Shown piece after piece: positions 9,687 through 62,718 of a DNA stretch of 64,000 nucleotides. Every line of letters starts with the position of its first letter. Positions within the stretch are counted from its first letter, which is position 1. The stretch covers positions 431,771 to 495,770 of the forward strand of contig JAHFLF010000001.1 of NCBI GenBank assembly GCA_023255625.1, given 5' to 3'. The notes under the pieces were generated by a model, which searched no databases, was not told the DNA's origin, and saw nothing but the letters and a program-made list of their open reading frames with translations. This DNA is from Candidatus Harrisonbacteria bacterium. Its GTDB lineage: Bacteria > Patescibacteriota > Minisyncoccia > UBA6257 > 1-14-0-10-44-23. A program made the position numbers and the translations under genes.

Positions 9687-9766
9687 GTAAAACTTGCGAC
9701 AATTCGGATTTTTGGCCGGGCTCACCCTGCGGGATGGCCAAAAATCCGAATTGTCGCAAGTTTTAC
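9687..9766. repeat. long hairpin H1: 31-bp perfect stem with conserved GGGCTCACCCTGCGGGATGG loop
   Basis: gtaaaacttgcgacaattcggatttttggcc [gggctcaccctgcgggatgg] ccaaaaatccgaattgtcgcaagttttac. Lies in the divergent region between the holin-like gene and murA. Confidence 0.7.
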
Positions 9767-9832
9767 ATTGAGTCATTAGTTAGCCGGCGATTAGCATTTA
9801 CTTAAATATCTCATATATGATATACTTTAAGA

Positions 9833-11347
9833 ATGATAAATCATCTGCAAAATCGGATCGGGAAACTGATCGGGGCATTTCGGGAGCGTTCTGGTATGAC
9901 GCAGGCGCAGCTTGCAAAAATTGTTGGTACGAGTCAAAGCGCTATTGCACGTATGGAGGATGGCGAGCAAAATTTTACGGTGGAAATGCTTGGGAAAATT
10001 TCCGGGGCGCTCAAGCGCGATATCATGACGCTTTCTAAAGGGACGGTTGATTTTGAAATTGAGGGCGGCAGGAAGTTGCACGGAACGGTTGTTACCAAAA
10101 CAAGCAAGAACGCTGCGGTTGGACTGCTCTGCGCCTCGCTTCTTAATAAAGGTACAACGACGCTTAAGAGCATGCCGAAGATTGAGGAGGTCAAACGGTT
10201 GATTGAGGTGCTGACGAGTATCGGCGTGGAAATAAGATGGGCTGGCGATGATTTAGAAATTCGCCCGCCGAAAAAGCTGGCGCTTGAGAAATTGAATGTC
10301 GTATCTGCGATTAAGACGCGTAGCATTATTATGTTTATCGGCCCGCTGATTCACCAATTAAAATCTTTTTCTCTGCCGCAGGTTGGGGGATGCAAGCTCG
10401 GCAGTCGCACAGTCCGCCCGCACTTTTTCGCACTGGAAAAACTCGGCGTGCAGATTGAGGCGCACAGCGACAGTTTTACGGTGAGTCATACAAAGCTTAA
10501 GCCGAATTACATTGTGCTGTACGAATCCGGCGACACCGTTACAGAAAATGTGCTGATGGCAGCCGCACTGATTCCGGGAACAACCACAATCAAATTTGCT
10601 TCGGCAAATTATCAGGTGCAGGACATGTGTCATTTTTTGCAGTTACTCGGGGTGCGCATAGAGGGGATTGGCACAACAACACTTGTGATTCACGGTGTTG
10701 CTTCTATTGATAAGGCGATTACCTATCACCCGAGCGAGGATCCGATTGAGTCCATGTTTTTCATTGCCGCCGCGGCCGTAACCAACTCGTCTATTGTTAT
10801 CAAGCGTTGCCCCATTGATTTTTTGGAGTTGGAGTTACTGAAGCTAGAAAAAATGGGTTGGAAGTTCAAGCTCTCGCCGCGGTACAAGGCGCGCAATGAC
10901 CACGCCGAGCTTGTAGATATCACGACACTGCCGAGTAAACTTGTGGCGCTGGAAGAAAAAATTGATTCGCGGCCGTTTCCTGGCATGAACATTGATAACC
11001 TGCCATTTTTTGCCGTGATTGCCACGCAGGCCGAGGGCCGCACGCTCATTCACGACTGGGTCTACGAAAAACGCGCTATCTATTATACGGAGTTAGATAA
11101 GTTGGGTGCGAATACTGTTTTAGCAGACAGCCACCGCGTGTTTATTCAGGGCAAGACTGATTTAAAAGCCGCTCAAGTCGTCTGCCCGCCGGCGCTCCGC
11201 CCCGCAACGATTATTTTGATCGGCATGCTTGCAGCAAGGGGGACTTCAATTCTGCGCAATGTGTATTCTATAAACCGCGGGTATGAGGATTTGGCGAATC
11301 GGCTCAATGAGCTGGGCGCGAAGATAAAGGTGTTGCGGGAGGCGTAA
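9833..11347 (+). CDS. murA: UDP-N-acetylglucosamine 1-carboxyvinyltransferase with N-terminal XRE-family HTH domain
   Basis: Residues ~20-65 form an HTH_3 pattern (MTQAQLAKIVGTSQSAIARMEDG). The rest aligns to MurA, including the catalytic Cys loop (QVGGCKLGSRTVRPH) and C-terminal INRGYEDLANRLNELGA. Confidence 0.85.
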   Translation: MINHLQNRIGKLIGAFRERSGMTQAQLAKIVGTSQSAIARMEDGEQNFTVEMLGKISGALKRDIMTLSKGTVDFEIEGGRKLHGTVVTKTSKNAAVGLLCASLLNKGTTTLKSMPKIEEVKRLIEVLTSIGVEIRWAGDDLEIRPPKKLALEKLNVVSAIKTRSIIMFIGPLIHQLKSFSLPQVGGCKLGSRTVRPHFFALEKLGVQIEAHSDSFTVSHTKLKPNYIVLYESGDTVTENVLMAAALIPGTTTIKFASANYQVQDMCHFLQLLGVRIEGIGTTTLVIHGVASIDKAITYHPSEDPIESMFFIAAAAVTNSSIVIKRCPIDFLELELLKLEKMGWKFKLSPRYKARNDHAELVDITTLPSKLVALEEKIDSRPFPGMNIDNLPFFAVIATQAEGRTLIHDWVYEKRAIYYTELDKLGANTVLADSHRVFIQGKTDLKAAQVVCPPALRPATIILIGMLAARGTSILRNVYSINRGYEDLANRLNELGAKIKVLREA

Positions 11348-11364
11348 TTTGATATAGTTGCTAT

Positions 11365-11799
11365 ATGAGTGGAGATTCATTAGATAAAAATTTGGGAAAT
11401 TCTGCGCCGCAACCTACGCCGGCGAAAGAGGCGGGTCCAGCGGAAAGGGCATCCCTTGAAATGCCACTTAGAACGATAGAGGGTGGTGGCGACTATAGTT
11501 TGGATTTTGCCTCTGACGAGGCCGCAGCAGAATTCGTCCGGGCATTTTGGGCACAAGTTGATAGTATTAGAGCTGCGCCGCCGGGTTCACAGATGCATGT
11601 GACAACTTATTTAAACAGTGGGATGTTTCTTCCGCTCAGGGAAATAACCGTAGGTTGTAGGACTGATACAGTAAGAACGACGGATGATAACGGCAGGACT
11701 CTGCGAAGAGTTATCGTTTGGAGCAATGGTACCAGAGGTGGATTGCAGCCATACGGAGTACAGGCGCTAAGAAATTTAGGCATAGAGGTTAAGAAGTAG
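11365..11799 (+). CDS. hypothetical protein
   Basis: ORF with reasonable codon usage between murA and an arsC-like gene; no recognisable motif. Confidence 0.4.
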   Translation: MSGDSLDKNLGNSAPQPTPAKEAGPAERASLEMPLRTIEGGGDYSLDFASDEAAAEFVRAFWAQVDSIRAAPPGSQMHVTTYLNSGMFLPLREITVGCRTDTVRTTDDNGRTLRRVIVWSNGTRGGLQPYGVQALRNLGIEVKK

Positions 11800-11805
11800 G
11801 TTTTT

Positions 11806-12225
11806 ATGAAAGTCTTATTTGTCTGTTGGGGAAATTCTGGGCGCAGCCAGTTCGCGGAAGCGTTTTTTGAAAAATTATCTTCTCGCCATCAGGTGAAAAG
11901 TGCCGGCACAAATGCTGATGAGCGCACCAAGCATTTCGGAACTGATCATGTGCCGGACATTGTTGCTGATGTTATGAACGAGGTCGGCGTTGACATGAGT
12001 GCGAAGCGCCGCAAGCAGCTGACAAAAGAGATGGCGGATGAGGCGGATATTATTATTGGAATTATTGATACACAGTTTTTGCCTGATTACATTTTGAAGT
12101 CGCCAAAATTTAGGCACTGGGATATACCTGATCCAAAAGGAACTGACGCAGCTTTTCATCGGAAGGTGCGTGACCAAGTCAAAAAGGAGGTTGAGAAATT
12201 GGCCCGTGAGATTGAGCGCGTGTGA
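11806..12225 (+). CDS. arsenate reductase / low-molecular-weight phosphotyrosine phosphatase family protein
   Basis: N-terminal CxGNxxRS P-loop (VCWGNSGRSQFAEAF), as in ArsC/LMW-PTP. Confidence 0.75.
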   Translation: MKVLFVCWGNSGRSQFAEAFFEKLSSRHQVKSAGTNADERTKHFGTDHVPDIVADVMNEVGVDMSAKRRKQLTKEMADEADIIIGIIDTQFLPDYILKSPKFRHWDIPDPKGTDAAFHRKVRDQVKKEVEKLAREIERV

Positions 12226-12239
12226 TGTTGCAATCTTCC

Positions 12240-12277
12240 CAGTATACTAAACCGACGGCCGTCGGTTTAGTATACTG
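12240..12277. terminator. perfect 17-bp palindrome, terminator-like hairpin
   Basis: cagtatactaaaccgacgg / ccgtcggtttagtatactg directly after the arsC-like gene. Confidence 0.6.
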
Positions 12278-13453: not shown

Positions 13454-13572
13454 TGCCCGTGCGCGATTATGTGAAGACGGCACCGGGCATATTTTTCTGG
13501 TGAAAAATCGGTCTATACTCTCGCGCCGTCGCGCTGCGAGAATTGCCGCTATCACATAATCGCGCACGGGCA
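13454..13572. repeat. structured repeat family 'GACGGCACC-core', copy A
   Basis: 21-bp flank pair tgcccgtgcgcgattatgtga / tcacataatcgcgcacgggca enclosing the core gacggcaccgggcatatttttctggtgaaaaatcggtctatactctcgcgccgtcgcgctgcgagaattgccgct. Starts 9 nt after the mreB stop. Confidence 0.7.
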
Positions 13573-14015: not shown

Positions 14016-14801
14016 ATGGCGACCATTGCTTCACTAGAAAGAGATTTTAAAAATCTCGTTAAACATGAGGCGCTTGCGCAGGCGTATGTTTTGCATGGGC
14101 CGGGCGGGGCGGTGCAGTTTGAGTTTGCAAAGGGGCTGGCATATTTTTTAGAAACCGGAGACTGGGCTGGTCCAACTAACCAACTAACTAAGCAACCAAC
14201 TAACCAAATTTTGTTGGATGCAAAATTTGTTGACGGCACCGCGCAGGATTTGGGAGTTGATGTGACTCGTGAGTTTAGTGAATTTTTATATCGCCAGCCG
14301 GTGGCAAGTCCACGCAGGACACTGGTGATTAACAGCGCGGCTGAATTTACCGACCGGGCGCAGAATGCAATTTTAAAGATTGTTGAGGAGCCGCCAAGTC
14401 ATGCGCTGATTATTCTGACAGTTCGCGATGTGAATTCGCTGCTGCCGGCGCTGCGGTCGCGGTTGCAGAAGGTGTGGGTGGCTGCAAGCGGCACGCTGCA
14501 AGAATCAAGCGAGGAGAGGCGAGCCAATGAATTAGTTGAGCAGTTTTTTCTCTCTGCGCCTGGCGAGCGAAGTAAATTAGTGAAAGCACTGATTGACGAG
14601 GATAAAGAACTGAAAGAAAAAGAAATAAAAAGCGAGCAAATTGCAGATCACTTCGTGCGTGCGCTGATTGTCGAACTTGCCAAAAAGCCGGAGCAGAATT
14701 GGCAGGCGCTCAAGGAGTTATTAAAGCGCCAGACGGCCATGGGGGATTACACGACGAGCCGGAAGTTGCAGCTGGAGGCCGCGCTTCAGTATTTGAAATA
14801 A
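14016..14801 (+). CDS. holB: DNA polymerase III subunit delta'
   Basis: AAA+-like N-terminus and conserved NAILKIVEEPP ... LPALRSR block of HolB. Confidence 0.8.
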   Translation: MATIASLERDFKNLVKHEALAQAYVLHGPGGAVQFEFAKGLAYFLETGDWAGPTNQLTKQPTNQILLDAKFVDGTAQDLGVDVTREFSEFLYRQPVASPRRTLVINSAAEFTDRAQNAILKIVEEPPSHALIILTVRDVNSLLPALRSRLQKVWVAASGTLQESSEERRANELVEQFFLSAPGERSKLVKALIDEDKELKEKEIKSEQIADHFVRALIVELAKKPEQNWQALKELLKRQTAMGDYTTSRKLQLEAALQYLK

Positions 14802-14805
14802 GCAA

Positions 14806-14920
14806 CGATGCGAATATACTAATGTACAAATGATACGAATGTATACAAATGTTTCCGTTCCCTGTATATTCGTATTATTAGTATAATTTGTACGAATTTG
14901 TATATTTGCATCGCGCACTC
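14806..14920. repeat. ~110-nt imperfect AT-rich palindrome between holB and frr
   Basis: gatgcgaatatactaatgtacaaatgatacgaatgtatacaaatg ... mirrored by ...catttgtatacattcgtatcatttgtacattagtatattcgcatcg on the opposite strand. Contains a TATAAT-like box. Confidence 0.45.
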
Positions 14921-14923
14921 ATT

Positions 14924-15475
14924 ATGGATTCCATCCTCAAGGATTTTGAAAAGTCAGTCGCGGCAATACTTTCGGCTCTTTCCGGCGAGCTTGGTTCGGT
15001 GCGCACAAGCCGGCCGAGCCCGCAGCTGATTGAGGATTTGAAAATTGATTACATGGGGACTTTGATGGCCGTGAAGCAGCTTGGTTCAATCAGCATCATC
15101 CCGCCGCGGGAGATGGCGATTAGTTTGTGGGATGCCAGCGGCGTAACAATAGTTGCCAAGGCGCTGGAGGATGCAAAGCGGGGATTTACAGTTTCGGTGC
15201 GGGGCGGAGCAATCTATATTGCTTTGCCGCCACTTTCCCAGGAACGGCGCGATGAGATGAGCAAACTGGCAAAAAGTATAGCCGAGATATATCGGATTAA
15301 AATCCGCGGTGCTCGGGAATCGGCGAACAAGCAACTACAAGTGGGCAAGCAGGCAAAGACTTTGACTGAAGACATGGAGACGCGTGGCAAGAAAAAAGTT
15401 CAGGAGGTTACCGAGAAGGCAAACAAGGATATTGAAGCAGCAGTTGAGAAAAAAGTTAGGGAGATTGCTGAATAA
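14924..15475 (+). CDS. frr: ribosome recycling factor
   Basis: RRF family conservation throughout. Start taken at MDSILKDFEK; the track ORF begins 12 codons earlier. Confidence 0.9.
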   Translation: MDSILKDFEKSVAAILSALSGELGSVRTSRPSPQLIEDLKIDYMGTLMAVKQLGSISIIPPREMAISLWDASGVTIVAKALEDAKRGFTVSVRGGAIYIALPPLSQERRDEMSKLAKSIAEIYRIKIRGARESANKQLQVGKQAKTLTEDMETRGKKKVQEVTEKANKDIEAAVEKKVREIAE

Positions 15476-15476
15476 T

Positions 15477-15782
15477 ATGAGCAAGACGCCAGAGGAGACA
15501 CTGTCAGGGCCAGCAGAGGTTATCAAGAGAGGTTTGACTGATGCAAAGACCGGCCTTGGGCAGATTGAGGTAGAACGGGGGAATGTTGTTGGCACGGCTC
15601 TTGCTGCTCTGCAGCTTGCACGCGATATGATCCCGACTGATGATGCTGATTTACGCGCACGCATTGATACTATTGTGAGTATGAATGATTCCAGGCAGCG
15701 CGCAGCCGAGCCCATAAAAGACGAGGTGGTTGAGACTGTCCGCGGCTTGATTGACGAAGTTCTTGGTAAGTTGCAGGGTTAG
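15477..15782 (+). CDS. hypothetical 101-aa protein
   Basis: Starts 1 nt after the frr stop (MSKTPEETLS..). The longer track ORF 15384.. overlaps frr out of frame and is rejected. Confidence 0.45.
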   Translation: MSKTPEETLSGPAEVIKRGLTDAKTGLGQIEVERGNVVGTALAALQLARDMIPTDDADLRARIDTIVSMNDSRQRAAEPIKDEVVETVRGLIDEVLGKLQG

Positions 15783-15793
15783 ACATTTTACTT

Positions 15794-16840
15794 ATGATCA
15801 CCGGCATCATTTTATTTATTGGCATCTCATTACTTATCCTCGTTCACGAGCTCGGGCATTTTTTGAGTGCGAAGCAAGCGGGGATTAAAGTTGAAGAGTT
15901 TGGGTTTGGTTTTCCGCCGCGGATAAAAGGATGGCGACGCGGTGAGACGCTCTATAGTTTGAATTGGTTGCCATTTGGCGGGTTTGTGCGGATTTATGGC
16001 GAGAGTAAACATAAGCAAGAATTGATCGCGCAGGAGACGGGGGAAGTTATAGAAATAAAACGAACTTTTTTTGCGCAATCAGTGTGGCGGCGTTTCGTGG
16101 TTATTGCCGCCGGCATTGCGATTAATTTTATTGCCGGCTGGCTGCTGCTTTCCGCGGTTTATATGATCGGAGACTGGGTGCGAGTTGAGATAACCGAGGT
16201 GCAACCGGGAAGTCCGGCGGCTTTGATTGACCTGCGCGAGGGGGATGCACTCACGCAGTTTACGGTGGCTGATGAGTTTGTCGCTTTCACAAAAGCGCAT
16301 AAGGGCGAGACGGTGAAAGTTGAAATTTTGCGCGACGGGATTTCTCTACAGAAGCAAGTGACGCTTCGGGCGCAACCAAAAGAGGGCGAGGGCGCGCTCG
16401 GTGCTGCGGTTTCTGACTTTGGTTTTCCGCGGCTGGGATTTGGCCGGGCGCTCGTAAAAGGATTTTCTGATTCAGTCGGTATGCTGGCTGATATTTTTCG
16501 TGCGCTTGGCAATCTGGTTGGTCAGATTTTTAGTCATGGAACATTGCCGGGCGATGTTGTTGGGCCGGTTGGTATCTTCAGCATGGCGGGGGAGTTTGGC
16601 AAACTTGGTTTTGTGTATGTGATTCAGGTGCTTGCCATGATCTCGCTCAACCTTGCCGCTCTTAACGCCTTACCGATTCCTGCGCTTGATGGCGGTCGTA
16701 TTCTTTTTCTAATTATAGAAAAAATAAAGGGCTCACCGATTGCGCCCAAGCGTGAGTTTTTCGCAAACATTATCAGCTTCGGCCTTTTAATTATTCTGAT
16801 GATTTTTATTACCGGACGAGATATAGTGCGACTGTTCTAA
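15794..16840 (+). CDS. rseP: RIP zinc metalloprotease RseP (site-2 protease, M50) with PDZ domain
   Basis: N-terminal TM with HELGH motif, central PDZ-like region, C-terminal LDGG motif region. Confidence 0.9.
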   Translation: MITGIILFIGISLLILVHELGHFLSAKQAGIKVEEFGFGFPPRIKGWRRGETLYSLNWLPFGGFVRIYGESKHKQELIAQETGEVIEIKRTFFAQSVWRRFVVIAAGIAINFIAGWLLLSAVYMIGDWVRVEITEVQPGSPAALIDLREGDALTQFTVADEFVAFTKAHKGETVKVEILRDGISLQKQVTLRAQPKEGEGALGAAVSDFGFPRLGFGRALVKGFSDSVGMLADIFRALGNLVGQIFSHGTLPGDVVGPVGIFSMAGEFGKLGFVYVIQVLAMISLNLAALNALPIPALDGGRILFLIIEKIKGSPIAPKREFFANIISFGLLIILMIFITGRDIVRLF

Positions 16841-16858
16841 AATACGATTCATTTAATT

Positions 16859-16908
16859 ATTTCTGACTATGTTACAGTGTACTAGTACACTGTAACATAG
16901 TCAGAAAT
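16859..16908. repeat. 50-nt perfect palindrome
   Basis: atttctgactatgttacagtgtac tag tacactgtaacatagtcagaaat, immediately after rseP. Confidence 0.7.
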
Positions 16909-16963
16909 CAAAGACCGAAATGATGAGAGAGTAGAGAGGCGTGGAAAAGAATAATTTTGTTTC

Positions 16964-17005
16964 ATAAAAATAGTGCGAGCCGTCCCAAGTTCATCGGGAC
17001 GGCTC
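16964..17005 (-). terminator. rho-independent terminator (minus strand)
   Basis: Minus-strand stem gagccgtccc/gggacggctc plus GCACTATTTTTATG, downstream of the small TM ORF. Confidence 0.55.
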
Positions 17006-17097
17006 GGCGGTTGCGCCCGTTGGTTCGTCACGGCTTGACGGGTCGGGCGATGGCACGCCAGAAGCTCCTGGGGCCGCACTTCGGCGGACGCCGCGAA

Positions 17098-17262
17098 TCA
17101 CTTCACCTCCGTGCCGGCTGGGGTCGCGATACCGGCGTGGGGTGTCTTGGGGCGCGCCGCAACGCTTACCCAGATCACGATCGCGAGTAGAACGATCACG
17201 ACCACTCCCTGAACCCAGTCTCCAGACTCCGGTTCATGGTCTTCGATTTGGACCGGGTCCAT
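17098..17262 (-). CDS. 54-aa single-TM protein (MDPVQIEDHEPESGDWVQGVVVIVLLAIVIWVSVAARPK...), hypothetical
   Basis: Hand-translated minus-strand ORF in a GC-rich island with a terminator just downstream. Alternative plus-strand track ORFs look low complexity. Confidence 0.3.
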   Translation of the reverse strand: MDPVQIEDHEPESGDWVQGVVVIVLLAIVIWVSVAARPKTPHAGIATPAGTEVK

Positions 17263-17527
17263 TTTCGTATACGCCGATTTCTCGACGCCTCCATATTGCC
17301 GCTGGGCGGGTTTGCCCAGTTTTTAAACTTTATACTGAAATTTTGAAAAGTCAATATTCGTATTTATTTCGGAAGTCTTATACAATAAGATTCTGGATTC
17401 AGGGTGAGATTCTTCGCTTTGATCAGAATGACGGACAGGGGATGGATTGCCACGGTGGGATAGACTCCCGCCCATTACTATGGGCGAGGCTCGCCCCAAA
17501 GGGGCGGCGCAATGACAGACTGAAAAT

Positions 17528-18781
17528 ATGAAACAAAGCCAGCTATTTACAAAAACTCGCAGAGAGCCACCAAGCGATGAGGTCGCAAAAAACGCGCAGC
17601 TTTTGATTCGTGCCGGATATATTCACAAAGAGATGGCGGGAGTGTACGCGTACCTTCCTTTGGGTTTGCGCGTTCTGAATAATGTTTCCAGAATTATTCG
17701 CGAAGAGATGAATGCCATCGGCGGCATTGAGATTCAGATGACCGCGCTGCAGGACAAAGAGAAGTGGGTCAAGAGTAATCGGTGGGATGACGCCGTGGTT
17801 GATGTATGGTTTAAGACTGCGCTCAAAAATGATGCTCAACTTGGTCTTGGTTTCACGCACGACGAAGCGCTGATTGATATTTTGAAAAATTATATTGCCT
17901 CGTACAAAGACCTGCCCCGGTATATTTATCAGATCCAGACAAAATTTCGCAATGAACTGCGTTCCAAAAGCGGCATTATGCGCGGACGCGAGTTTTTGAT
18001 GAAAGATCTGTATTCTTTTACTCGCACACAGCAGGAGCTTGATGCATTTTATGAAAAGGTCCAGCGGGCGTATCACAATGTGTTTCGCCGTTGCGGTATC
18101 GGCGACTCCACCTATCTTACATTCTCAAGCGGAGGAACATTCAGCCAGTTTTCGCATGAGTTCCAAACTATTTCTGATGCAGGCGAGGATGTTATTTATG
18201 TTGATCAGGCAAAAAAGATTGCTGTGAATAAAGATGTACTGAATGACGAGGTGCTTAAAGGTTTGGGGCTTACACGATCTAACCTGGTTGAAAAAAAGGC
18301 AATTGAAGTTGGCAATATTTTTCGGCAGGGAACTCGTTTTACCGATGCGCTTGGCGTGTATTACGCTGACGAAAAAGGTGAGCGGCAGTCTTTATATATG
18401 GGCGGGTATGGGATTGGCGTGAGTCGTGTTGTTGGCACTATCGTTGAGGTGCTGGCTGATGACAAAGGATTAGTTTGGCCCAAAGAGGTGGCGCCATTTG
18501 CGGTGCACCTTATCGCAATCGCGGGGAAAAGCGGAGAGAAGGTCAGTGCTGCCGCCGATAATTTGTACGCTGATTTAGAGAAAGCCGGCGTTGAGGTTTT
18601 GTATGATGATCGCGATGTTTCGGCCGGCGGAAAATTAGCGGATGCTGATCTGATTGGTATTCCGACGCGCATTGTTATTTCTGAAAAGACCCTAGAAAAA
18701 GATTCTGTAGAGGTTAAAGAGCGGGCGAGCGGAGAGACGAAGATGGTGGCGCTTTCAGTTGCGATAGATCATTTTGCTTAG
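17528..18781 (+). CDS. proS: proline--tRNA ligase, short form lacking the editing (INS) domain
   Basis: Class II aaRS motifs, ProRS-type N-terminus (LLIRAGYIHKEMAGVYAYLPLG) and C-terminal anticodon-binding domain. 417 aa versus ~570 for INS-containing enzymes. Confidence 0.9.
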   Translation: MKQSQLFTKTRREPPSDEVAKNAQLLIRAGYIHKEMAGVYAYLPLGLRVLNNVSRIIREEMNAIGGIEIQMTALQDKEKWVKSNRWDDAVVDVWFKTALKNDAQLGLGFTHDEALIDILKNYIASYKDLPRYIYQIQTKFRNELRSKSGIMRGREFLMKDLYSFTRTQQELDAFYEKVQRAYHNVFRRCGIGDSTYLTFSSGGTFSQFSHEFQTISDAGEDVIYVDQAKKIAVNKDVLNDEVLKGLGLTRSNLVEKKAIEVGNIFRQGTRFTDALGVYYADEKGERQSLYMGGYGIGVSRVVGTIVEVLADDKGLVWPKEVAPFAVHLIAIAGKSGEKVSAAADNLYADLEKAGVEVLYDDRDVSAGGKLADADLIGIPTRIVISEKTLEKDSVEVKERASGETKMVALSVAIDHFA

Positions 18782-18851
18782 CGGTTGGCCATATATTTTT
18801 ACAGCCGGGCTCATCGCAAGCGAATGGCTGTAAAAATATATGGCCAACCGC
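18781..18851. repeat. long hairpin H2 (GGGCTCA-loop family)
   Basis: cggttggccatatatttttacagcc [gggctcatcgcaagcgaatgg] ctgtaaaaatatatggccaaccg. Confidence 0.7.
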
Positions 18852-18860
18852 TACCTTTGG

Positions 18861-18941
18861 TTTAGAATTCCGCAGTTTGTGTTTTTGCGGCCGGGCTCAT
18901 CCTTCGGAATGGCCGAAAAACACAAACTGCGGAATTCTAAA
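18861..18941. repeat. long hairpin H3 (GGGCTCA-loop family)
   Basis: tttagaattccgcagtttgtgtttttgcggcc [gggctcatccttcggaatgg] ccgaaaaacacaaactgcggaattctaaa. Tandem with H2. Confidence 0.7.
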
Positions 18942-19040
18942 ATCTGCTTGCGCGCTTATTTTGTTTGGTATATAAAGAAACTGTTGGCTACCATCAAGTT
19001 CTGTCTGGTGACAGAGGGAGGTGGGGCTACATTTCAGGAG

Positions 19041-19763
19041 ATGGAGGATTTGATGCTTAGCTGGAGCAATATCGGTGTCCCGGTGCAGGATGTTCAGGTA
19101 GTGGGGCCGGAAGTCTTCCTGAATGTCCCAGTATTCCGGCAGACGAGCGCTGCCGGAAGAGCTCGTCTTGCCGAATGCGGCTGTGTTCGGCGGCTGAACC
19201 GAGGAGAGAGGGTCTTCCGGATCGGCGATCCGGTGGAGAAGCTGGCCATCGTTCTGGATGGTCGCATCCAGTGCGGCCGCGAGAACCGCGGGCGACCATG
19301 GGTCAGCACCATCACGGAGGTTGGTGGAGTCGTGTCTCTCGCTGGATGCCTGGTCGGAGGGAATTGGCCGGCGGGTGCCATCGCGCTCACCGCGGCCTCG
19401 GTGGTGGAGATTCCTCGCGATGTCTTCATGACGCTGATTCACGAGGATCGTGAATTGGTAGAGGCGCTTCTCCTTGCGGTTGCACGGGAGGCGCTCGACG
19501 CCGAGGCGATGTGCGCGGCATTCGCACTTCAGACCCCAGAGCAGAGGGTCGCCGCGTTCCTGATTGGACTGGTAGGCGAGAGTGACTCTGCCGTGCTGCC
19601 AGATACACAGGCGCGCCTGGCTGCACAGCTCGGGACCGTTCGCGAGTGCTTTGGGAGGGCCATGCGCAGTCTCGTGGATAAAGGGGTGATCACTCGCTCG
19701 GGGATTTACGGCAAGAGCTTCCGGATCATCAACCGCGAGTATCTCGAGCTGCTCGCGAGCTGA
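19041..19763 (+). CDS. Crp/Fnr family transcriptional regulator (cNMP-binding + C-terminal HTH)
   Basis: cNMP-binding beta-roll pattern (FRIGDPVEKLAIVLDGRI) and HTH (TQARLAAQLGTVRECFGRAMRSL). Start taken at MEDLMLS, preceded by AGGAG; the track ORF's N-terminus is translated through hairpins H2/H3. About 65% GC, unlike neighbouring genes. Confidence 0.75.
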   Translation: MEDLMLSWSNIGVPVQDVQVVGPEVFLNVPVFRQTSAAGRARLAECGCVRRLNRGERVFRIGDPVEKLAIVLDGRIQCGRENRGRPWVSTITEVGGVVSLAGCLVGGNWPAGAIALTAASVVEIPRDVFMTLIHEDRELVEALLLAVAREALDAEAMCAAFALQTPEQRVAAFLIGLVGESDSAVLPDTQARLAAQLGTVRECFGRAMRSLVDKGVITRSGIYGKSFRIINREYLELLAS

Positions 19764-22270: not shown

Positions 22271-22495
22271 AGCTACGAATAACGAATTATTACGAAAGTA
22301 CGAATAATACGGGAATGACAAAAAAGCCCGAGAGCTACGAATAACGAATTATTACGAAAGTACGAATAATACGGGAATGACAAAAAAGCCCGAGAGCTAC
22401 GAATAACGAATTTTTACGAAAGTACGAATAATACGGGAATGACAAAAAAGCCCGAGAGCTACGAATAACGAACTAATTACGAAAGTACGAATTAA
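22271..22495. repeat. 62-nt tandem repeat x3.7 (agctacgaataacgaattattacgaaagtacgaataatacgggaatgacaaaaaagcccgag)
   Basis: Three near-identical units plus one diverged unit between mreD and PBP2. The same unit flanks the GxxExxY gene at 26509. Confidence 0.85.
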
Positions 22496-29880: not shown

Positions 29881-30063
29881 CCGTGTGTTCACGGAGAGTA
29901 TTGACAAGCGAGTTTGGCTAAGATCGGCAGGGATACATTTTACCGCCGCCTTTAGCCAAACTCGCTTGTCTTCAATCACAATGTTTATTTGCGGCACAGC
30001 GATTTGTTGTGCCAAGAATTTGCTTGCTTTGTCATTAAAATTTATGCTTAAATAAGCCGTATC

Positions 30064-31422: not shown

Positions 31423-31822
31423 TTTTTTTGTGAGGAAATACAAACCTCTCCCCAAGATGAGCAGATAAGATATTTGGCAGGAAAACCAATGCAAAGTCTG
31501 CACCAAGATGAGCAGGGATACCTTTTACTGCTCCCTATGGTGCGGACTTTGCATTGGTTGGGGTGTTGCGCTTACTTGTTGGACTCACGATTTTCTTGGC
31601 TGGGTGCATTTTCCTGGTTATCGGGTACTACGGAGCGCCGCGCGAAAGCGCATGATGCGGACAATTGCCGAAAAACCCGAGCGGGCTGTATTTGTTTCTT
31701 ACAATGGTTTGCTCTGGCACGGCAATACATACAAAATATTGCAGCAGCTAAAAAATGAGTATTGGTTAAGATCCGGGGGTTCGGGGGTGGTATGATAAGT
31801 ATGCGGATTTGCGCCGCTTGTT

Positions 31823-34744: not shown

Positions 34745-35653
34745 TTGGCCACAACATTTTTACGAATTCTAAAATACGGGTTTCAGAGTTTCTGGCGTAA
34801 CGGCTGGCTTTCGATGGCGACCGTCCTGGTTATGGTGCTTGCCCTTATGACAATGCAGGCGCTCATGCTTTTTAATGTCGGTACGACTACGGCCGTGGCC
34901 GCTATACAGGATAAAATTGATATCGCAGTTTATTTCAAACGAGCGGCCAGCGAGGATAGCATGCTGGCTCTCAAGAAAACTGTTGAACGGCTGCCGCAGG
35001 TAAAAAATGTTGAATATGTTTCTAGCGATGAGGCGCTTGCGGATTTTAAGCAGAGGCATTTAACCGATTTAACAATCAACCAGGCGTTGGCCGAATTAAA
35101 CCAAAACCCGCTGCCCGGATCGTTAAACATCAAGGCCAATGATCCAAATGATTACGCCCTGATTGCGGCATATCTTGATAAAAATGCTCCGGCCGGACTG
35201 ATCGAAAAAGTTACCTATAGCCAGCACAAAAACGCTATCGACCGGCTGAATAAATTTGTCGATACTCTGAACCGAATGGGGCTTGCGGTTACCTTGTTTT
35301 TGGCTTTTGCCGCCAGCTTAGTGGCCTTCAATACAATCCGGCTGGCGATTTATTCCAACCGCGACGAGATTGGTATTATGCGGCTAGTTGGCGGTTCGAA
35401 TATGTTTATCAAAGGGCCGTATCTGGTTACCGGGATTATGTATGGATTTTTTGGCGCGCTCGTAGCGATTATCTTGATGGCACCGATTGCCAATATTATT
35501 AATCCATATCTGGTTCGGCTAGTGCCGGAGGTTCAGTTGGAAACTTATTTTTATGCTCACATTTTTCCGCTTTTCGGCTATATGATGCTTTTCGGGGCAG
35601 GGTTGGGAATTATTTCCAGCTGGATAGCAACTCGGAGGTATTTGCGCGTCTAA
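34745..35653 (+). CDS. ftsX: cell division permease FtsX
   Basis: TM1 - large periplasmic loop - three C-terminal TMs, FtsX-like blocks. Partner of ftsE. Confidence 0.85.
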   Translation: MATTFLRILKYGFQSFWRNGWLSMATVLVMVLALMTMQALMLFNVGTTTAVAAIQDKIDIAVYFKRAASEDSMLALKKTVERLPQVKNVEYVSSDEALADFKQRHLTDLTINQALAELNQNPLPGSLNIKANDPNDYALIAAYLDKNAPAGLIEKVTYSQHKNAIDRLNKFVDTLNRMGLAVTLFLAFAASLVAFNTIRLAIYSNRDEIGIMRLVGGSNMFIKGPYLVTGIMYGFFGALVAIILMAPIANIINPYLVRLVPEVQLETYFYAHIFPLFGYMMLFGAGLGIISSWIATRRYLRV

Positions 35654-35758
35654 TAATTGCCCAGACGGCACCGTCCATATTTTTCTGGTGAAAAATCGGT
35701 CTATACTCTCGCGCCGTCGCGCTGCGAGAATTGCCGCTAGGGCAATTATTAGACGCGC
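35645..35758. repeat. structured repeat family 'GACGGCACC-core', copy B
   Basis: Flanks gcgtctaataattgccc / gggcaattattagacgc (includes the ftsX stop codon). Core nearly identical to copy A. Confidence 0.75.
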
Positions 35759-35796
35759 AAACTAGACCTCCTTCATAAAAAAGCGAGGGATTTTAC

Positions 35797-35927
35797 TCAA
35801 GATGAGCAGGGATACCTTTTACTGCTCCCTATGAGAAAAATTTTGCTGGTTTAGAAATTAGAAATTGAAAATTAGAGATTCCCGCAGGGTTTTTAACCGC
35901 AAAAGACGCGGTTAAAAACCCTGCGGG
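35797..35927. repeat. composite: CAAGATGAGCAGGGATACC hairpin motif, GAAATT module, and 20-bp terminator hairpin overlapping the stop of the converging surface-protein gene
   Basis: caagatgagcagggataccttttactgctccctatg (also at 31498..31535). gtttagaaattagaaattgaaaattagagatt. cccgcagggtttttaaccgc aaaagac gcggttaaaaaccctgcggg. Confidence 0.6.
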
Positions 35928-37523: not shown

Positions 37524-37647
37524 GTATCGGCCCCGCGGTTTTGCCGCAGACCGGCACCGGCTATCTTTTTCTGCTGAAAAAGCGCCTGCTCTCGGCCTCC
37601 TCGGCCTGCGAGAGTGCCGCCTAGCGGCAAAACCGCTGGGCCGATAC
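37524..37647. repeat. structured repeat family 'GACGGCACC-core', copy D (diverged)
   Basis: Flanks gtatcggcccc..gcggttttgccgc / gcggcaaaaccgc..gggccgatac. Core gaccggcaccggctatctttttctgctgaaaaagcg... with compensatory changes in the inner hairpin (ctttttc/gaaaaag versus atttttc/gaaaaat). Confidence 0.65.
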
Positions 37648-44676: not shown

Positions 44677-44704
44677 CGATCACTGTGCGCAGTATTTTTT
44701 ACCT

Positions 44705-44828
44705 GCAGTTTGCCGTCAGACGGCACCGGGGTTATTTTTCTGCTGAAAAATCCCCCTACATCTCCCGCCGTCGCGGTCCGATAGTTGCCGCGTAGACGGC
44801 AAACTGCAGGTAAAAAATTAACGGCTCG
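44705..44828. repeat. structured repeat family 'GACGGCACC-core', copy C
   Basis: Flanks tttttacctgcagtttgccgtc / gacggcaaactgcaggtaaaaaa. Lies between convergent genes and overlaps the 3' end of the dgkA-like ORF. Confidence 0.7.
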
Positions 44829-47475: not shown

Positions 47476-48630
47476 ATGTTTTCATATTCAATCAAAAAAG
47501 TTTTTATCGCCGGATTAGCGGCAGCAGCCGTGTTAGTCCCACTGGCGGTTTCTGCGCAATCAGTCGCCACGATACAGAGTAAGACCGGCGGCTGTATTTT
47601 CAATCGCGACATGACAATCGGTCTGCGCGGCGATGATGTGCAATGTTTGCAGGAGTATTTGATTAAGGGCGGATTCTTGAAAGTTTCAGCCACCGGATAC
47701 TTTGGTCTGCTCACGCGATCAGCGGTCATTAGCTGGCAAGCGGCGCATGCGGTTCTAGCGCGCGGCTACTTTGGTGCCATTTCGCGCGGCGTATATAACG
47801 GATATAATCAGCAGTCGACATTTGCTTTCGATAGTTATCAGACAAAAGAAAGCTGCGAGCAAGCCACCGGATATGAATGTGAGCCCTGGATGTGCGACTA
47901 TGTGCCACCGGGTAAAACATTCGCGCAGGTTTGTCCAAATGGCGGCAGTGGCTGGAGTCGGACGACGATTCGTAAGCCGGTTATCAGTACTCCTGTATGT
48001 GCTCAAGTCCTCAAGCAGTGCCCGGATGGTTCATTGGTTGGTTATGCGACTGGCACATGCCAATATCTTAGCTGTCCGCAGCCGACTACCGCGCCGACGA
48101 GCAGCGCCATTAATCAGCCGAGTATCAGTGGGGGAGCAGCAGTAAGCAGCGGATCTTTCGGCGGGCTTCTGAATCAAAAGCTGGCGGTTTTTTCGATCTC
48201 AAATTATGCCGGTGGTTCTGTGAAGATTTCCGATTTGTCATTCAAAAAAGATAAAAACACCGGTTTAATTTTGCAAAATTTAAGAGTGGTCATCGCCGGT
48301 AGTTTTGGCGGCAATCAATTTGGGGTTACTCAAACTGCCGTGATGGACGATGAGAAGATTGTTGTTACGGCTGTATATCCGGTTACGATTTCAAAAAGGC
48401 AAGCAATCACTGTAGAGGTTTACGCCGATATTCTGGCCGGATCATTGCCGAGTAAATACCTCTCCGTTATTGATCTGGTAGATTGGGGGGCAACCAAATC
48501 GAAAAGCGGTGCCTCGATCGCTTTCCCGGGCACCCAGCCCGGGCAGGATCTGCTGCTTTACGAAAAATATTCAACTTTAGAGGGATCTGTTCCGGCTGGA
48601 GTTAGTTTGACATCACTGGATGGATCCTAG
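47476..48630 (+). CDS. secreted Cys-rich protein with peptidoglycan-binding (PG_binding_1-like) domain
   Basis: Signal peptide MFSYSIKKVFIAGLAAAAVLVPLAVSAQS; DDVQCLQEYLIKGGFL...GYFGLLTRSAVISWQ pattern. Confidence 0.55.
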   Translation: MFSYSIKKVFIAGLAAAAVLVPLAVSAQSVATIQSKTGGCIFNRDMTIGLRGDDVQCLQEYLIKGGFLKVSATGYFGLLTRSAVISWQAAHAVLARGYFGAISRGVYNGYNQQSTFAFDSYQTKESCEQATGYECEPWMCDYVPPGKTFAQVCPNGGSGWSRTTIRKPVISTPVCAQVLKQCPDGSLVGYATGTCQYLSCPQPTTAPTSSAINQPSISGGAAVSSGSFGGLLNQKLAVFSISNYAGGSVKISDLSFKKDKNTGLILQNLRVVIAGSFGGNQFGVTQTAVMDDEKIVVTAVYPVTISKRQAITVEVYADILAGSLPSKYLSVIDLVDWGATKSKSGASIAFPGTQPGQDLLLYEKYSTLEGSVPAGVSLTSLDGS

Positions 48631-48667
48631 AAATTCAAAACCCGCACTAGGCGGGTTTTGAATTTCT
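48630..48667. terminator. bidirectional terminator hairpin between convergent genes
   Basis: gaaattcaaaacccgc cta gtgcgggttttgaatttc (perfect 16-bp stem). Confidence 0.7.
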
Positions 48668-48672
48668 AACGA

Positions 48673-52986: not shown

Positions 52987-53031
52987 GTTGTACTATGCCC
53001 TTATTCGCGCGAATAAGGGCATAGTACAAAT
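52987..53031. repeat. 44-nt perfect palindrome upstream of tRNA-Gln
   Basis: ttgtactatgcccttattcgcg cgaataagggcatagtacaa. Confidence 0.7.
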
Positions 53032-55158: not shown

Positions 55159-55261
55159 TCGCTAATATCGCAAATAAAGGGCAGGAATATCGCCAATGGA
55201 TGCATGATCAAGAAGTAATCGCTAATATCGCAAATAAAGGGCAGGAATATCGCCAATGGAT
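55154..55261. repeat. two direct ~47-nt units (agtaatcgctaatatcgcaaataaagggcaggaatatcgccaatggat), left flank of GxxExxY cassette
   Basis: Unit 1 overlaps the pilB stop. Unit 2 supplies the ATG of the cassette gene. A diverged third copy lies at ~53748..53795 upstream of pilB. Confidence 0.8.
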
Positions 55262-55648
55262 ACTGCTGAAAATACTCTTGTTTTCCCAGAATTAAGCTAT
55301 CAAGTTGTTGGAGCGGCTTTCGATGTATTTAACGAGCTTGGTTGGGGATATAAAGAAAAAGTATATGAGCAAGCTCTTTTGTTAGAGCTGCAAAAATTTA
55401 GGTTGCCGATACGATCTCAAGTTTACATTCCATTACAATATAAAGAAAATATAATCGGTAAGTTTTTCGCAGATATTATTGTTGACGATAAAATTTTGAT
55501 TGAGCTTAAGATTGTTTCGCAATTGGGTTATGTACATATCAAACAAATATATCCTTATCTAAAAGCTGCTAGGTTTAAACTGGGTATTTTGATATACTTT
55601 ACTAAAGATGGTGTTAAGTACAGGAGAATTTTGAATCCGGAAGTTTAA
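55256..55648 (+). CDS. GxxExxY family protein (second paralog)
   Basis: ELSYQVVGAAFDVFNELGWGYKEKVYEQAL contains the GxxExxY signature. Inserted between pilB-like and pilC-like genes. Confidence 0.75.
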   Translation: MDTAENTLVFPELSYQVVGAAFDVFNELGWGYKEKVYEQALLLELQKFRLPIRSQVYIPLQYKENIIGKFFADIIVDDKILIELKIVSQLGYVHIKQIYPYLKAARFKLGILIYFTKDGVKYRRILNPEV

Positions 55649-61453: not shown

Positions 61454-61623
61454 GTTATGCACAGCCCTGCAAGATTGATCTAATTTCATCTGCTATTATT
61501 AAAACAAGTCTGACCTGTTCCTGCAGGGCAGGATGCCTTACTTATACGGGGTAAGGAAAGCGTTTATTACTAACATTAACCGTATCAGTCGAATTAGAAT
61601 ACTTTAATTACAAATTTATTATT

Positions 61624-62070
61624 ATGAAATCCAACAAAGGTTTCACGCTCATCGAGCTCCTCGTCGTTATCGGTATTATTGCAATTTTGGCTTCAGTGGT
61701 CATCGTCGCCCTGAACCCGGCCCGGCAGTTTGCCCAGGCCCGCAACACGCAGCGCAGCGCAAATATAAATGCAATTTTGAACGCAATCGGCCAGAACATG
61801 GCGGACAATCGTGGCCTCTGGAATTCCACTGGCTGTGGCACCGCACTTCCGGCTTCGATCTCTTACATTGGTTCGGCCAGCACCAGCATCGCGGGCTGCT
61901 TAGTTTCCGACTATCTGCCGAGCATGCCTTATGATCCAGATGGCGGTTACTACACAGACGCTACAGATTATGGCGCTTTCTACCGTGTGATGCAGGATGC
62001 AGTTACCGGCCGCGTGACGGTTGAGGCTCCAAAGGCAGAACTTGGCGCCGTTCTTTCCGTAACTCGTTAA
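61624..62070 (+). CDS. type IV pilin (major pilin candidate)
   Basis: MKSNKG|FTLIELLVVIGIIAILASVVIVALNP: short leader, Phe1/Glu5, hydrophobic alpha1; C-terminal Cys pair. Confidence 0.85.
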   Translation: MKSNKGFTLIELLVVIGIIAILASVVIVALNPARQFAQARNTQRSANINAILNAIGQNMADNRGLWNSTGCGTALPASISYIGSASTSIAGCLVSDYLPSMPYDPDGGYYTDATDYGAFYRVMQDAVTGRVTVEAPKAELGAVLSVTR

Positions 62071-62094
62071 GCGGTTTGTTTCGTATCGCGTTAT

Positions 62095-62128
62095 TAACAC
62101 AAAGACCCCTGGCTGGGGTCTTTGTGTT
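62095..62128 (+). terminator. terminator hairpin after the first pilin gene
   Basis: aacacaaagacccc tggct ggggtctttgtgtt (14-bp stem), followed by a TATAAT box (ggtataattg) for the next pilin gene. Confidence 0.65.
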
Positions 62129-62161
62129 AATGGTATAATTGAATAAAACATTAATTTATTT

Positions 62162-62635
62162 ATGTCGATATCAACTGTAAACTATAAACTACTAAATCGT
62201 CGCCGCGGTTTCACCCTCATCGAACTTCTCGTCGTTATCGGTATTATTGCCATCTTGGCTTCAGTGGTCATCGTTGCCTTGAATCCGTCTCGCCAGTTTG
62301 CCCAGGCCCGCAACACGCAGCGGCTTTCGAACATTAACGCGATTTTAAATGCGGTTGGACAGAATATGGCAGATAACAGCGGCAAGTGGTCTTGCTCCGC
62401 GCCGCTGCCCGGTTCAGAAACTGTTATCGCTTCTGCTGGCGGCGCGGACATAGCTGATTGCCTTATTCCTGATTATCTACCATCTATGCCATATGATCCG
62501 CAGAGCGGTACTTGGGCTAGCTCGACAAGTTACAATACCGGTTATAGCATTTTCCAGACCGGCGGGAGTACTGGCCGGGTTACCGTGAAGGCGCAGGGAC
62601 AGGAGCTTGGCGCTAATTTGATTGTAACACGGTAG
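62162..62635 (+). CDS. type IV pilin paralog
   Basis: MSISTVNYKLLNRRRG|FTLIELLVVIGIIAILASVVIVALNP; about 110 nt near-identical to the first pilin at the 5' end; C-terminal Cys pair. Confidence 0.85.
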   Translation: MSISTVNYKLLNRRRGFTLIELLVVIGIIAILASVVIVALNPSRQFAQARNTQRLSNINAILNAVGQNMADNSGKWSCSAPLPGSETVIASAGGADIADCLIPDYLPSMPYDPQSGTWASSTSYNTGYSIFQTGGSTGRVTVKAQGQELGANLIVTR

Positions 62636-62646
62636 CATTTTAACAC

Positions 62647-62718
62647 GCAGCATCCGGCTTACTTTTCACAGCCGGGCTCACCCTACGGGATGGCTATGAA
62701 AAGTAAGCCGGATGCTGC
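62647..62718. repeat. long hairpin H4 (GGGCTCA-loop family)
   Basis: gcagcatccggcttacttttcacagcc [gggctcaccctacgggatgg] ctatgaaaagtaagccggatgctgc. Confidence 0.7.

Follow-up and report, generated by a model that had tools for sequence, protein, structure and literature searches.

Recurrent tips on locus-specific perfect hairpins at gene ends of a Candidatus Harrisonbacteria genome

Results

A shared core on five unrelated stems

We analyzed a stretch of 64,000 nucleotides from Candidatus Harrisonbacteria bacterium (GenBank assembly GCA_023255625.1, contig JAHFLF010000001.1, positions 431,771 to 495,770; hereafter the window) together with its same-contig extensions (L122 and L245), in all 81.6 kb of a genome of ~0.6 Mb. 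Homologs of prolyl-tRNA synthetase and SHMT come from sources named Candidatus Parcubacteria, Paceibacterota and Minisyncoccia, which places the window among the Patescibacteria. Between its genes, among them proS, mreB, ftsX and sod, stand long hairpins that combine a stem peculiar to each locus with a tip that recurs from locus to locus. An initial annotation had singled out four of them (family A, copies A1 to A4; Table 1) as long perfect stems that share no sequence with one another and yet carry a nearly identical loop of ~20 nt. The four were recovered at their reported positions, with perfect stems of 23–31 bp, and folding of the single strands gave −51 to −55 kcal/mol (relative to shuffled sequences, z is about −10 to −12). 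Their arms matched only themselves and their partner arms in the 81.6 kb and in the relatives L124–L126 and L231, in agreement with the claim that the stems are dissimilar. The hairpins are identical in independently made assemblies (an ENA MEGAHIT contig and the Logan contig L123; for A4, L123), so they are not assembly artefacts.

The shared tip is real, but larger than had been proposed: the common core comprises 24–25 nt (RGCC-GGGCTCA-YCS-N3-4-SGR-AT-GGCY) and includes a GCC/GGC closing helix. In every copy a run of four or five T lies 1–4 nt upstream of the core and is mirrored by an A-run downstream. The inner ministems are CCC/GGG, TCC/GGA and TCG/CGA. Two copies have U-A as the outer pair and the other three have C-G; at the third pair, judged by eye, A2 alone has G-C and the remaining four have C-G. 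Pairing reaches 97% in the proposed register vs. 14–49% in slid registers, and the covariation noticed earlier is accordingly real but shallow. The 7-mer GGGCTCA by itself is not enriched (9 observed vs. 6.4 expected), and a sequence scan found the complete core confined to these hairpins, so that the motif is not a common sequence outside them. Furthermore, the family extends beyond the first four copies, since a fifth occurs on an unrelated stem in a second Paceibacteria organism (see below). Because the core is common to five unrelated stems in two organisms, the likeness among the tips cannot be due to chance.

Several tip families and plain palindromes in one genome

Perfect stems of at least 17 bp number 21 in the 81.6 kb, vs. 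0 in 30 dinucleotide shuffles. The hairpins fall into four copies of family A, four of family B, four of family C (three in the window and one 2.8 kb beyond its end), two singleton tips and ~12 plain hairpins (Table 1). The family B tip is a 77-nt three-way junction (AGACGGCACC...TTTTTCTGSTGAAAAA...CTCTCG..CGAGA..TTGCCGCTA), and that of family C a 32-nt module (30–32 nt; AGAT-CGGCAG-GGATACMTTTTA-CTGCCG-CCTA). Both have short imperfect inverted termini (AGAY-CGGCA...TGCCG-SYTA), and, as termini and part of the interior are common to the two, C looks as though it derives from B by shortening. The singleton tips (hairpin 5753–5866, and hairpin −5193 to −5091, which is L245 reverse-complement 3058–3160) measure 74 and 59 nt, sit on perfect stems of 20 and 22 bp and occur once each in the 81.6 kb; they are possible additional tip families.

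Five of the ~12 plain hairpins are perfect palindromes with no spacer at all (34–50 bp). Spacerless palindromes are normally unstable in bacteria that have SbcCD. One of the five (69323–69356) lies inside the coding region of an LTD-domain protein. Hairpins of different kinds also pile up in tandem, as in the pair A2–A3 and in a B-C-plain series within 290 nt (35641–35927).

Table 1 Hairpins, palindromes and an associated gene (window numbering unless a relative is named)
Feature	Position	Strand	Stem	Tip or center	Setting
A1	9687..9766	+	31 bp, perfect	core 9715–9738, GCCGGGCTCACCCTGCGGGATGGC	between a divergent holin-like gene (minus) and an HTH-EPSP-synthase-like gene (plus)
A2	18779..18853	+	28 bp, perfect	core 18804–18828; ministem TCG/CGA, loop CAAG	bases 1–3 are the TAG stop codon of proS
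A3	18861..18941	+	26 bp, perfect, + 5-bp inner helix past one bulged G	core 18890–18913; ministem TCC/GGA, loop TTC	tandem with A2, upstream of crp/fnr gene
A4	62646..62719	+	23 + 4 bp, one C.A mismatch	core 62671–62694, loop TAC	starts 10 nt past stop of pilin-like gene, ends 13 nt before sod gene
Family B (B-13454)	13454..13572	+	21 bp, perfect	77 nt, AGACGGCACC...TTGCCGCTA	begins 8 nt past mreB stop
Family B (B-35641)	35634..35771	+	22 bp, perfect (35641–35761), + outer 6-bp extension
Family B, most divergent copy (B-37524)	37524..37647	+	10 + 13 bp		8 nt past stop of minus-strand gene 37656–38306; module antisense to that gene
Family B	44694..44818	+	24 bp, perfect		convergent genes on either side
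Family C	29903..29970	+	19 bp, perfect	30–32 nt, AGAT-CGGCAG-GGATACATTTTA-CCGCCG-CCT
Family C	31484..31559	+	15 + 7 bp	AGAT-GAGCAG-GGATACCTTTTA-CTGCTC-CCTA
Family C (C-35790)	35790..35841	+	10 bp, one mismatch	identical to 31484 copy	between B-35641 and plain hairpin 35881–35927
Perfect palindrome	12240..12277		19 + 19 bp	zero spacer	14 nt past stop codon
Perfect palindrome	16859..16908		25 + 25 bp	zero spacer	18 nt past stop codon
Perfect palindrome	52988..53029		21 + 21 bp	zero spacer	divergent region beside tRNA gene
Perfect palindrome	67721..67758			zero spacer	past window end (numbering continued)
Perfect palindrome	69323..69356			zero spacer	past window end (numbering continued)
Plain long hairpin	1610..1670		25 bp	11-nt loop; canonical A-run/GC-stem/T-run center	resembles a bidirectional terminator whose stem is extended
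Plain long hairpin	35881..35927		20 bp	7-nt loop	arm overlaps last 16 nt of minus-strand gene 35912–37495
Plain long hairpin	48628..48668		18 bp		opens with TAG stop of gene 47476–48630; convergent genes
Plain long hairpin	62093..62131		17 bp	5-nt loop	22 nt past stop codon
crp/fnr-family gene	19046..19763	+			62% GC vs. 47.6% for the window; start approximate
G hairpin, L247	19801..19933
G hairpin, L248	13746..13878
G hairpin, L249	17859..17995

Position at gene ends

Nearly all hairpins, capped or plain, start within −13 to +25 nt of the stop codon of the gene that is transcribed toward them. For family A the distance is −3 in A2, +10 in A4 and −5 in the copy of the second organism (L250), with A3 in tandem behind A2; A1 is the exception, lying in a divergent promoter region as had been noted before. 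Occupied intergenic regions are 4/7 of the convergent, 12/62 of the tandem and 2/8 of the divergent ones.

Gene-end sites, enrichment at convergent pairs and the many plain long hairpins with a canonical A-run/GC-stem/T-run center are what one would expect of ordinary intrinsic terminators, whose loops would then be alike by accident. However, none of the 3′ flanks of A1 to A4 (ATTGAGTC, CCTTTGGT, ATCTGCTT and AAGATAGA) is a T-tract, none of the four was called by a consensus scan for intrinsic terminators, and the T-run sits 5′ of the GC core instead of behind it. Family A hairpins are thus not canonical terminators, and this absence of a U-tract, together with the copy in the divergent region, upholds the earlier remark that they are not just terminators. 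Accidental likeness is also hard to reconcile with one core on five unrelated stems, and 25–35 perfect bp are far above what termination needs. The terminator explanation is refuted as a sufficient one, and we consider it very improbable.

The outer arm of A1 overlaps a −35 consensus (TTTACT, 9691–9686, minus strand; consensus scan) of the holin-like gene, and the same spot in a relative holds a small gene and a plain hairpin (L125 4389–4427). A separate, conserved palindrome, ATATCATATATGATAT, immediately precedes the HTH-EPSP-synthase-like fusion gene in the window and in relatives (window ~9806–9826, L125 4686–4709, L124 ~1955–1975) and is probably an autoregulatory operator of the HTH domain; a near-identical copy stands upstream of a different gene (L124 15765–15788).

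GC skew is positive throughout, minus-strand genes included, so that the plus strand is the leading strand. All 13 modules of families A, B and C share a single DNA orientation, which corresponds to 13/13 with respect to the replication strand and to 12/13 with respect to transcription, B-37524 being the exception.

Stems copied from local sequence

The proximal arm of B-35641, with its 6-bp outer extension, covers ~20 nt of the ftsX reading frame that encode RRYLRV*, and this peptide aligns with the very end of solved FtsX structures. Because the proximal arm is ancestral, conserved coding sequence, the distal arm must be the copy. The MFS gene that precedes the fifth family A hairpin ends differently in two lineages (...VA-TAG and ...VA-TGA), and in each of them the distal arm of the hairpin at this site ends in the exact reverse complement of its own last codons and stop.

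A second kind of evidence comes from hairpins with another tip (G, described below) in the relatives L247 and L249, whose alignable flanks show that they are orthologous. Outer and inner blocks of the stem are the same in both, but its middle consists of 14 nt in L247 and of 12 nt of unrelated sequence in L249, and in each genome the opposite arm mirrors this block exactly. As the change is mirrored in both arms, the arms evolve in concert, by copying. Arms that copy the adjacent coding ends (ftsX and MFS) and mirrored 12/14-nt blocks are as expected of template-switch palindromes, and the arms are thus templated from local sequence. Furthermore, ~500 bp of perfect stem contain not one G.T wobble, which, with the spacerless palindromes, points to a symmetric process at the DNA level rather than to selection on RNA. 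The outer stem block of L247 (19801–19812 / 19922–19933, with equivalents in L249) contains TTGCAA, on sequence reading the likely −35 of the S1 gene. Coincidence of the outer blocks with −35 hexamers may explain why these blocks were kept and the middle of the stem was not.

Unique stems with conserved tips, and arms of 23–36 bp, a length within the range of guide RNAs, could also suggest that the stems are captured foreign sequence, transcribed into long hairpin RNAs that would serve as guides or in an RNAi-like way, the tip being a processing signal. The arms, however, contain the host's own conserved coding ends and stop codons and, on sequence reading, a promoter −35; four arm 20–21-mers had no exact match in IMG/VR; and no second copy of an arm was found in the 81.6 kb or in L124–L126 and L231. 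The stems are for these reasons not spacer-like captures, and we find this explanation hardly credible.

Tips have a history of their own

Three adjacent positions in 77 distinguish the tips of B-13454 and B-35641, yet their stems have no similarity, whereas the true orthologs in L247 and L249, at comparable tip divergence, have kept 22 of ~36 stem pairs. Whole hairpins that duplicated and then diverged would not give this contrast, and near-identical tips on unrelated stems mean that tip and stem are of separate ancestry. Likewise, the C-35790 tip matches that of the 31484 copy exactly, on a stem of 10 bp with one mismatch.

The fifth copy of family A makes the same point in a different organism (L231/L250; JGI Ga0182030_10002029, Paceibacteria, 55% GC). 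Its core is GCCGGGCTCACCCTTCGGGATGGC, preceded by TTTTT and carried by an unrelated 34-bp stem, and the hairpin begins 5 nt inside the MFS gene, in the sense orientation. It was the only true match of one metagenome scan, and a covariance model found no further family A copies in 292 kb of loci from the candidate phyla radiation (CPR). With the recurrence in a second organism and the same pattern in the sister family B, the suggestion that a conserved tip on arbitrary stems is a unit of its own holds good. This hairpin lies directly upstream of a gene for a family-X DNA polymerase (PolX with PHP domain; L250 9349–11130), an adjacency that is probably coincidental. Gap-filling and snap-back synthesis are activities linked with PolX enzymes.

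The same layout with other tips (G, D, D2 and H) is found in the L231/L250 lineage and in the relatives L247–L253. The G tip (61 nt) is homologous to B in the TCTGCTGA loop and in the CTCTCG..CGAGA helix, on stems of 36–38 bp, and G hairpins stand in antisense to the gene before them. The D tip has an 18-nt loop, GAATTATTCTTATCACGA, identical at 18/18 positions on three unrelated stems in three genomes. The H tip occupies, in relatives at 82% identity, the MFS site that A occupies in L231/L250, with an A-like layout, a different sequence and a different 32-bp stem.

The G fold is identical in two genomes through compensatory changes. A hairpin with the loop UCUGSUGA, common to B and G, has a fully covarying stem (AUUUUUC/GAAAAAU, CCGGUC/GACCGG and CCGUUC/GAACGG), and compensatory changes occur also in the second helix, CUCUCG...CGAGA; the whole always caps a long perfect hairpin. 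Because the alignment shifted, RNAalifold reached no coherent consensus for the four B copies, and only its result for the P2 hairpin was kept. We regard the B/G three-way junction as a candidate new structured motif. Among known motifs, the K-turn was dropped on sequence reading; a hammerhead does not agree with the loop, which reads CUGSUGA instead of CUGANGA; mimicry of the initiator-tRNA anticodon arm is matched by GGGCUCAU but not by the 3′ half, and A2 cannot form the stem; and a DNA uptake sequence would not have so low a copy number and a single orientation.

Conservation and a possible role of the RNA

The A core differs between the two genomes at one loop base, although neutral DNA is saturated at this distance, and such conservation suggests selection on the tip sequence, likely through a recognition or folding role on 3′-end hairpins. 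One may go further and take the whole element as a functional RNA, with tips as recognition caps, or as small RNAs released by RNase III, on 3′-untranslated-region (3′-UTR) hairpins whose stems serve as exonuclease barriers or processing sites. In addition to the A core, the D loop (18/18 in three genomes) is conserved where neutral DNA is saturated; helices covary in A, B and G; placement relative to stop codons is consistent; all A copies with a clear upstream gene are sense-oriented, in two genomes; and the window encodes RNase J. REP hairpins are reported to act as 3′-UTR regulators in E. coli (bioRxiv 10.64898/2026.03.23.713779). Selection on RNA, however, requires neither strict Watson-Crick stems free of G.U nor spacerless palindromes. 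B-37524 and the G hairpins run antisense to the preceding gene, A1 has no gene ending before it, the tandem pile-ups exceed the need of any single function, and close relatives do without the hairpins. As an explanation of the whole, a functional RNA therefore seems unlikely to us.

Gain and loss in relatives

Syntenic relatives (82–86% identity in prolyl-tRNA synthetase) contain zero tips and only 0–1 stems of at least 17 bp per ~20 kb each, and their spacers measure 30–55 nt vs. 120–700 nt in the window. The capped hairpins are thus a recent, lineage-specific gain. Downstream of folD, a D2 hairpin is present in L250 and a D hairpin, on another stem, in L247 and L248; L249 has no hairpin there. 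Since hairpin content differs at this site and among relatives, the elements turn over quickly. This site lies in an integration hotspot (SHMT-folD-tRNA) which, in relatives of the L231 lineage, breaks synteny with L231/L250; in L247 Transposase_mut genes, a serine-recombinase-like gene and a type IV secretion/relaxase island lie beside it (1–744, 5234–6166, 8529–9758 and 14701–18020).

The tandem pair A2–A3 is followed by the crp/fnr-family gene, which the initial annotation had called GC-rich and probably acquired. We agree, because its GC content is far above that of the window (Table 1) and it is missing at the loci of four relatives from three related lineages: nothing of the kind lies between proS and mreB in L124, L125 and L126, and L246 has an unrelated gene of 305 aa there. 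The proS-mreB junction looks like a recurrent insertion point. The open reading frame (ORF) called at 18840–19763 runs through A3 and has probably been extended too far on the 5′ side. Upstream of the pair lies proS, for prolyl-tRNA synthetase, formerly taken for a histidyl-tRNA synthetase gene.

Small ORFs of selfish type are scattered among the housekeeping genes (26509–26904, 55256–55648, 27577–27864, 34353–34697 and L122 11529–11939); three encode PDDEXK_3 (GxxExxY-type) nucleases, one a GIY-YIG protein and one a 23S-rRNA-intervening-sequence protein (23S-IVP). The PDDEXK_3 gene at 26509 and the GIY-YIG/tRNA segment at 27516–27864 are absent from the syntenic relatives. The mreD-PBP2 spacer (22331–22492) has two overlapping copies of a ~100-nt sequence, which matches the end of the PDDEXK_3 gene at 26509 (its 3′ part, ~26786–26884) in inverted orientation, at 93–95% identity. 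Window and ENA assembly differ by ~25 nt in this spacer, and the repeat may be a relic or a repeat-number polymorphism.

Searches for an enzyme and for copies elsewhere

The initial annotation had suggested a protein-recognition hairpin or a tiny element that targets hairpin loops, and had advised looking for a co-occurring transposase or binding protein. No transposase, recombinase, reverse transcriptase, IS200/IS605, RAYT or Cas-like gene was found in the 81.6 kb (Pfam on window ORFs, and flanking gene calls), nor was a binding protein identified there. Nor does any enzyme consistently adjoin the tip copies, those on other contigs included; the PDDEXK_3, GIY-YIG and 23S-IVP ORFs do not stand beside hairpins. 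Rfam returned only tRNAs and tmRNA at gathering score, and at E ≤ 5 the hairpins gave just spurious matches to miRNA precursors. Scans of IMG/VR with the A, B, C and D patterns gave chance, stemless matches or none, and blastn of a B hairpin against phage and plasmid collections gave zero matches. Genome contigs were scanned with GCCGGGCTCAYCN{5,9}RATGGC; among the matches listed, those fetched had no flanking stem, came mostly from GC-rich genomes and are attributable to chance.

The loop-targeting idea corresponds to an explanation in which the palindromes came first and an enzyme encoded elsewhere (an HUH/Y1 transposase, a recombinase or the like) inserts modules at the tip of the hairpin or cruciform. 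Plain long palindromes are as common as capped ones, and the five spacerless ones would be ready targets; in all copies the modules abut the stem exactly at the symmetry center, with no leftover loop bases; the orthologous MFS site has different tips, A and H, in two lineages; and the uniform leading-strand orientation is like that of single-stranded-DNA transposons. There are also precedents, since REP palindromes are specific insertion sites of IS1397, ISKpn1 and IS621 (PMC1525189). The enzyme is, however, missing both from the 81.6 kb around 12 copies and from the neighborhood of copies in other contigs, no target-site duplication is visible, one C tip sits on an imperfect stem of 10 bp, and the origin of the palindromes would still require template copying. 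The idea of a loop-targeting element thus fits as one of two readings, the other being that the tip came first, and we judge insertion into the apex rather unlikely.

Discussion

Proposed template copying around dispersed tips

Several tip families, sites at stop codons, and stems that are locally templated and concerted shift the explanation from one special hairpin family to palindrome-making across the genome together with dispersed tips. The explanation we favor, tentatively, is that non-autonomous tips are dispersed at the center of locally made palindromes, which are kept perfect by template switching and act as 3′-end hairpins when transcribed. Replication template switching is reported to create perfect stems in one event and to keep them perfect (PMC8794818), and it can expand the arms of inverted repeats (PMC13100816).

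Two layers would be involved. In the first, intramolecular template switching during DNA synthesis would copy one arm from the other. The template would be the gene-proximal arm, which contains the final codons of the preceding gene, and such copying would both create the stem and keep it perfect. It would be a property of the whole genome, acting on any stable small hairpin, be it an ordinary terminator or a tip of family A, B or C. In the second, the tip would be a dispersed repeat with a small covarying hairpin of its own, spreading independently of the stems; the family A module would be a non-coding unit of ~26 nt (~40 nt with the T/A runs), placed exactly at the symmetry center of the palindrome. 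Most likely the tip would serve as the nucleating or asymmetric center round which the stem is copied, although in the alternative order it would be inserted in the apex of a pre-existing palindrome. The tip-first order is favored by the C tip on a short stem, by the exact abutment of stem and tip and by the GC-rich closing helices. Since the palindromes stand at stop codons, hairpins of −50 to −70 kcal/mol would be transcribed at mRNA 3′ ends, where they would block 3′ exonucleases or read-through in transcripts whose ends have no U-tract, and the conserved cap would be available for recognition by a protein or for nucleation of folding. We infer template switching, the order of events, the mode of dispersal and the role of the RNA from the pattern in the sequences. 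A function of the RNA can be combined with this explanation, as the reason for which tips are retained.

Several points weigh against template copying around dispersed tips. Template switching is deduced from the pattern it would leave. The spacerless plain palindromes could equally be unoccupied targets. The mid-stem replacement between L247 and L249 needs a source beyond simple copying from arm to arm, and the ancestry of the proximal arm, as far as sequence comparison reaches, covers coding ends, not the inner part as an ancestral 3′-UTR. No enzyme or mechanism for the dispersal of the tips was found in the 81.6 kb. Alignment of intergenic regions with the relatives at 82–86% recovered no pair of filled and empty alleles, and there is no clean boundary because these regions are too diverged in the closest relatives. 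The apparent selection on tips is not predicted by a model in which they are selfish and nothing else. Finally, orientation cannot tell whether the role is one of DNA or of RNA, as 13/13 and 12/13 fit about equally well.

A bolder proposal is that these "capped palindromes" constitute an undescribed class of repeats in CPR/Paceibacteria, whose small structured modules home to the apex of a hairpin or cruciform whatever its stem sequence, or seed an inverted duplication of the flanking target upon insertion. Such spread, directed by structure or by copying of the target, would have no described enzyme and would shape most gene ends; in a variant, the caps would be ligands of an RNA- or DNA-binding protein that marks transcript ends in reduced genomes. 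We hold this to be possible but doubtful.

Comparison with known systems

REP/BIME elements and REPINs with their RAYT share many features with the present hairpins, being short intergenic hairpin repeats in many copies, located at gene 3′ ends, often in tandem, transcribed in 3′-UTRs and non-autonomous. In REP, however, the stem is conserved, with a 5′ tetranucleotide, and the loop is variable, whereas here the tip is conserved and the stem unique to its locus, 2–3 times longer and perfectly paired, and the 81.6 kb contain no RAYT/Y1 gene. A shared stem sequence, as in REP/BIME and REPINs, was not found: the arms are dissimilar, and the tip alone is common. The insertion sequences that target REP (IS1397, ISKpn1 and the IS621/IS110 family; PMC1525189) are likewise mobile DNA inserting into extragenic palindromes, but they are autonomous elements of 1–1.5 kb that recognize a specific REP sequence, compared with non-coding inserts of 20–77 nt in palindromes with no common sequence.

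Template switching and quasipalindrome correction (PMC8794818, PMC13100816, PMC7202029) resemble the present case in reverse-complement copying, in stems made by one event, in the fixing of mismatches and in the expansion of arms. Such events are usually sporadic and involve from a few to ~20 nt; those considered here are genome-wide, affect dozens of gene ends and have recurrent tips at their centers.

Miniature inverted-repeat transposable elements (MITEs such as Correia, RPE and Nezha) and the repetitive hairpin elements (RHEs) of sponge mitochondria (PMC2800124) are also small, non-autonomous, intergenic hairpin repeats that vary between close relatives. Their arms, as terminal inverted repeats, are conserved and flanked by direct target duplications, in contrast to the unique arms without direct duplication seen here. 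Compared with MITEs in particular, each hairpin has outer arms of its own and no flanking direct repeat. In the mitochondria of fungi, GC clusters and double-hairpin elements are further small repeats that form hairpins. Ends of the IS200/IS605 or PATE type do not agree either, as the stems are not conserved and neither Y1_Tnp nor OrfB gave a Pfam match in the window or the flanking loci; the same is true of integron attC sites, since conservation lies at the tip and not at the base, the stems pair perfectly, and neither an integrase nor a cassette array is present.

To our knowledge, the only well-known case of a conserved loop on a free stem is that of the HUH-endonuclease origins of rolling-circle plasmids, geminiviruses and circoviruses, where the enzyme nicks single-stranded DNA in the loop. 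These origins, as generally known, occur once per replicon, beside a rep gene, with stems of ~10 bp, as against dozens of chromosomal copies, no rep gene and stems of 25–35 bp here. In the literature we searched, we found no description of a layout with a conserved center and unique, locally copied arms. A mode of tip spread or recognition that is itself new is a genuine, if lesser, possibility.

CPR/Patescibacteria account for much of bacterial diversity, and their non-coding DNA is almost uncharted. The hairpins offer a natural system for studying, at the scale of a genome, how template switching creates and maintains hairpins, and a case in which a mutational process of DNA would directly yield RNA structure at mRNA 3′ ends. 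If the tips are mobile by a structure-directed route, or are ligands of a dedicated protein, a new mechanism would be at hand; otherwise the tips, especially the 77-nt B/G three-way junction that covaries across lineages, are candidate new RNA motifs. Known repeat families have conserved arms and a free center, and the present layout is their inverse; because the repeat logic is inverted, repeat finders that cluster stems, terminator predictors and RNA-motif pipelines miss elements of this kind.

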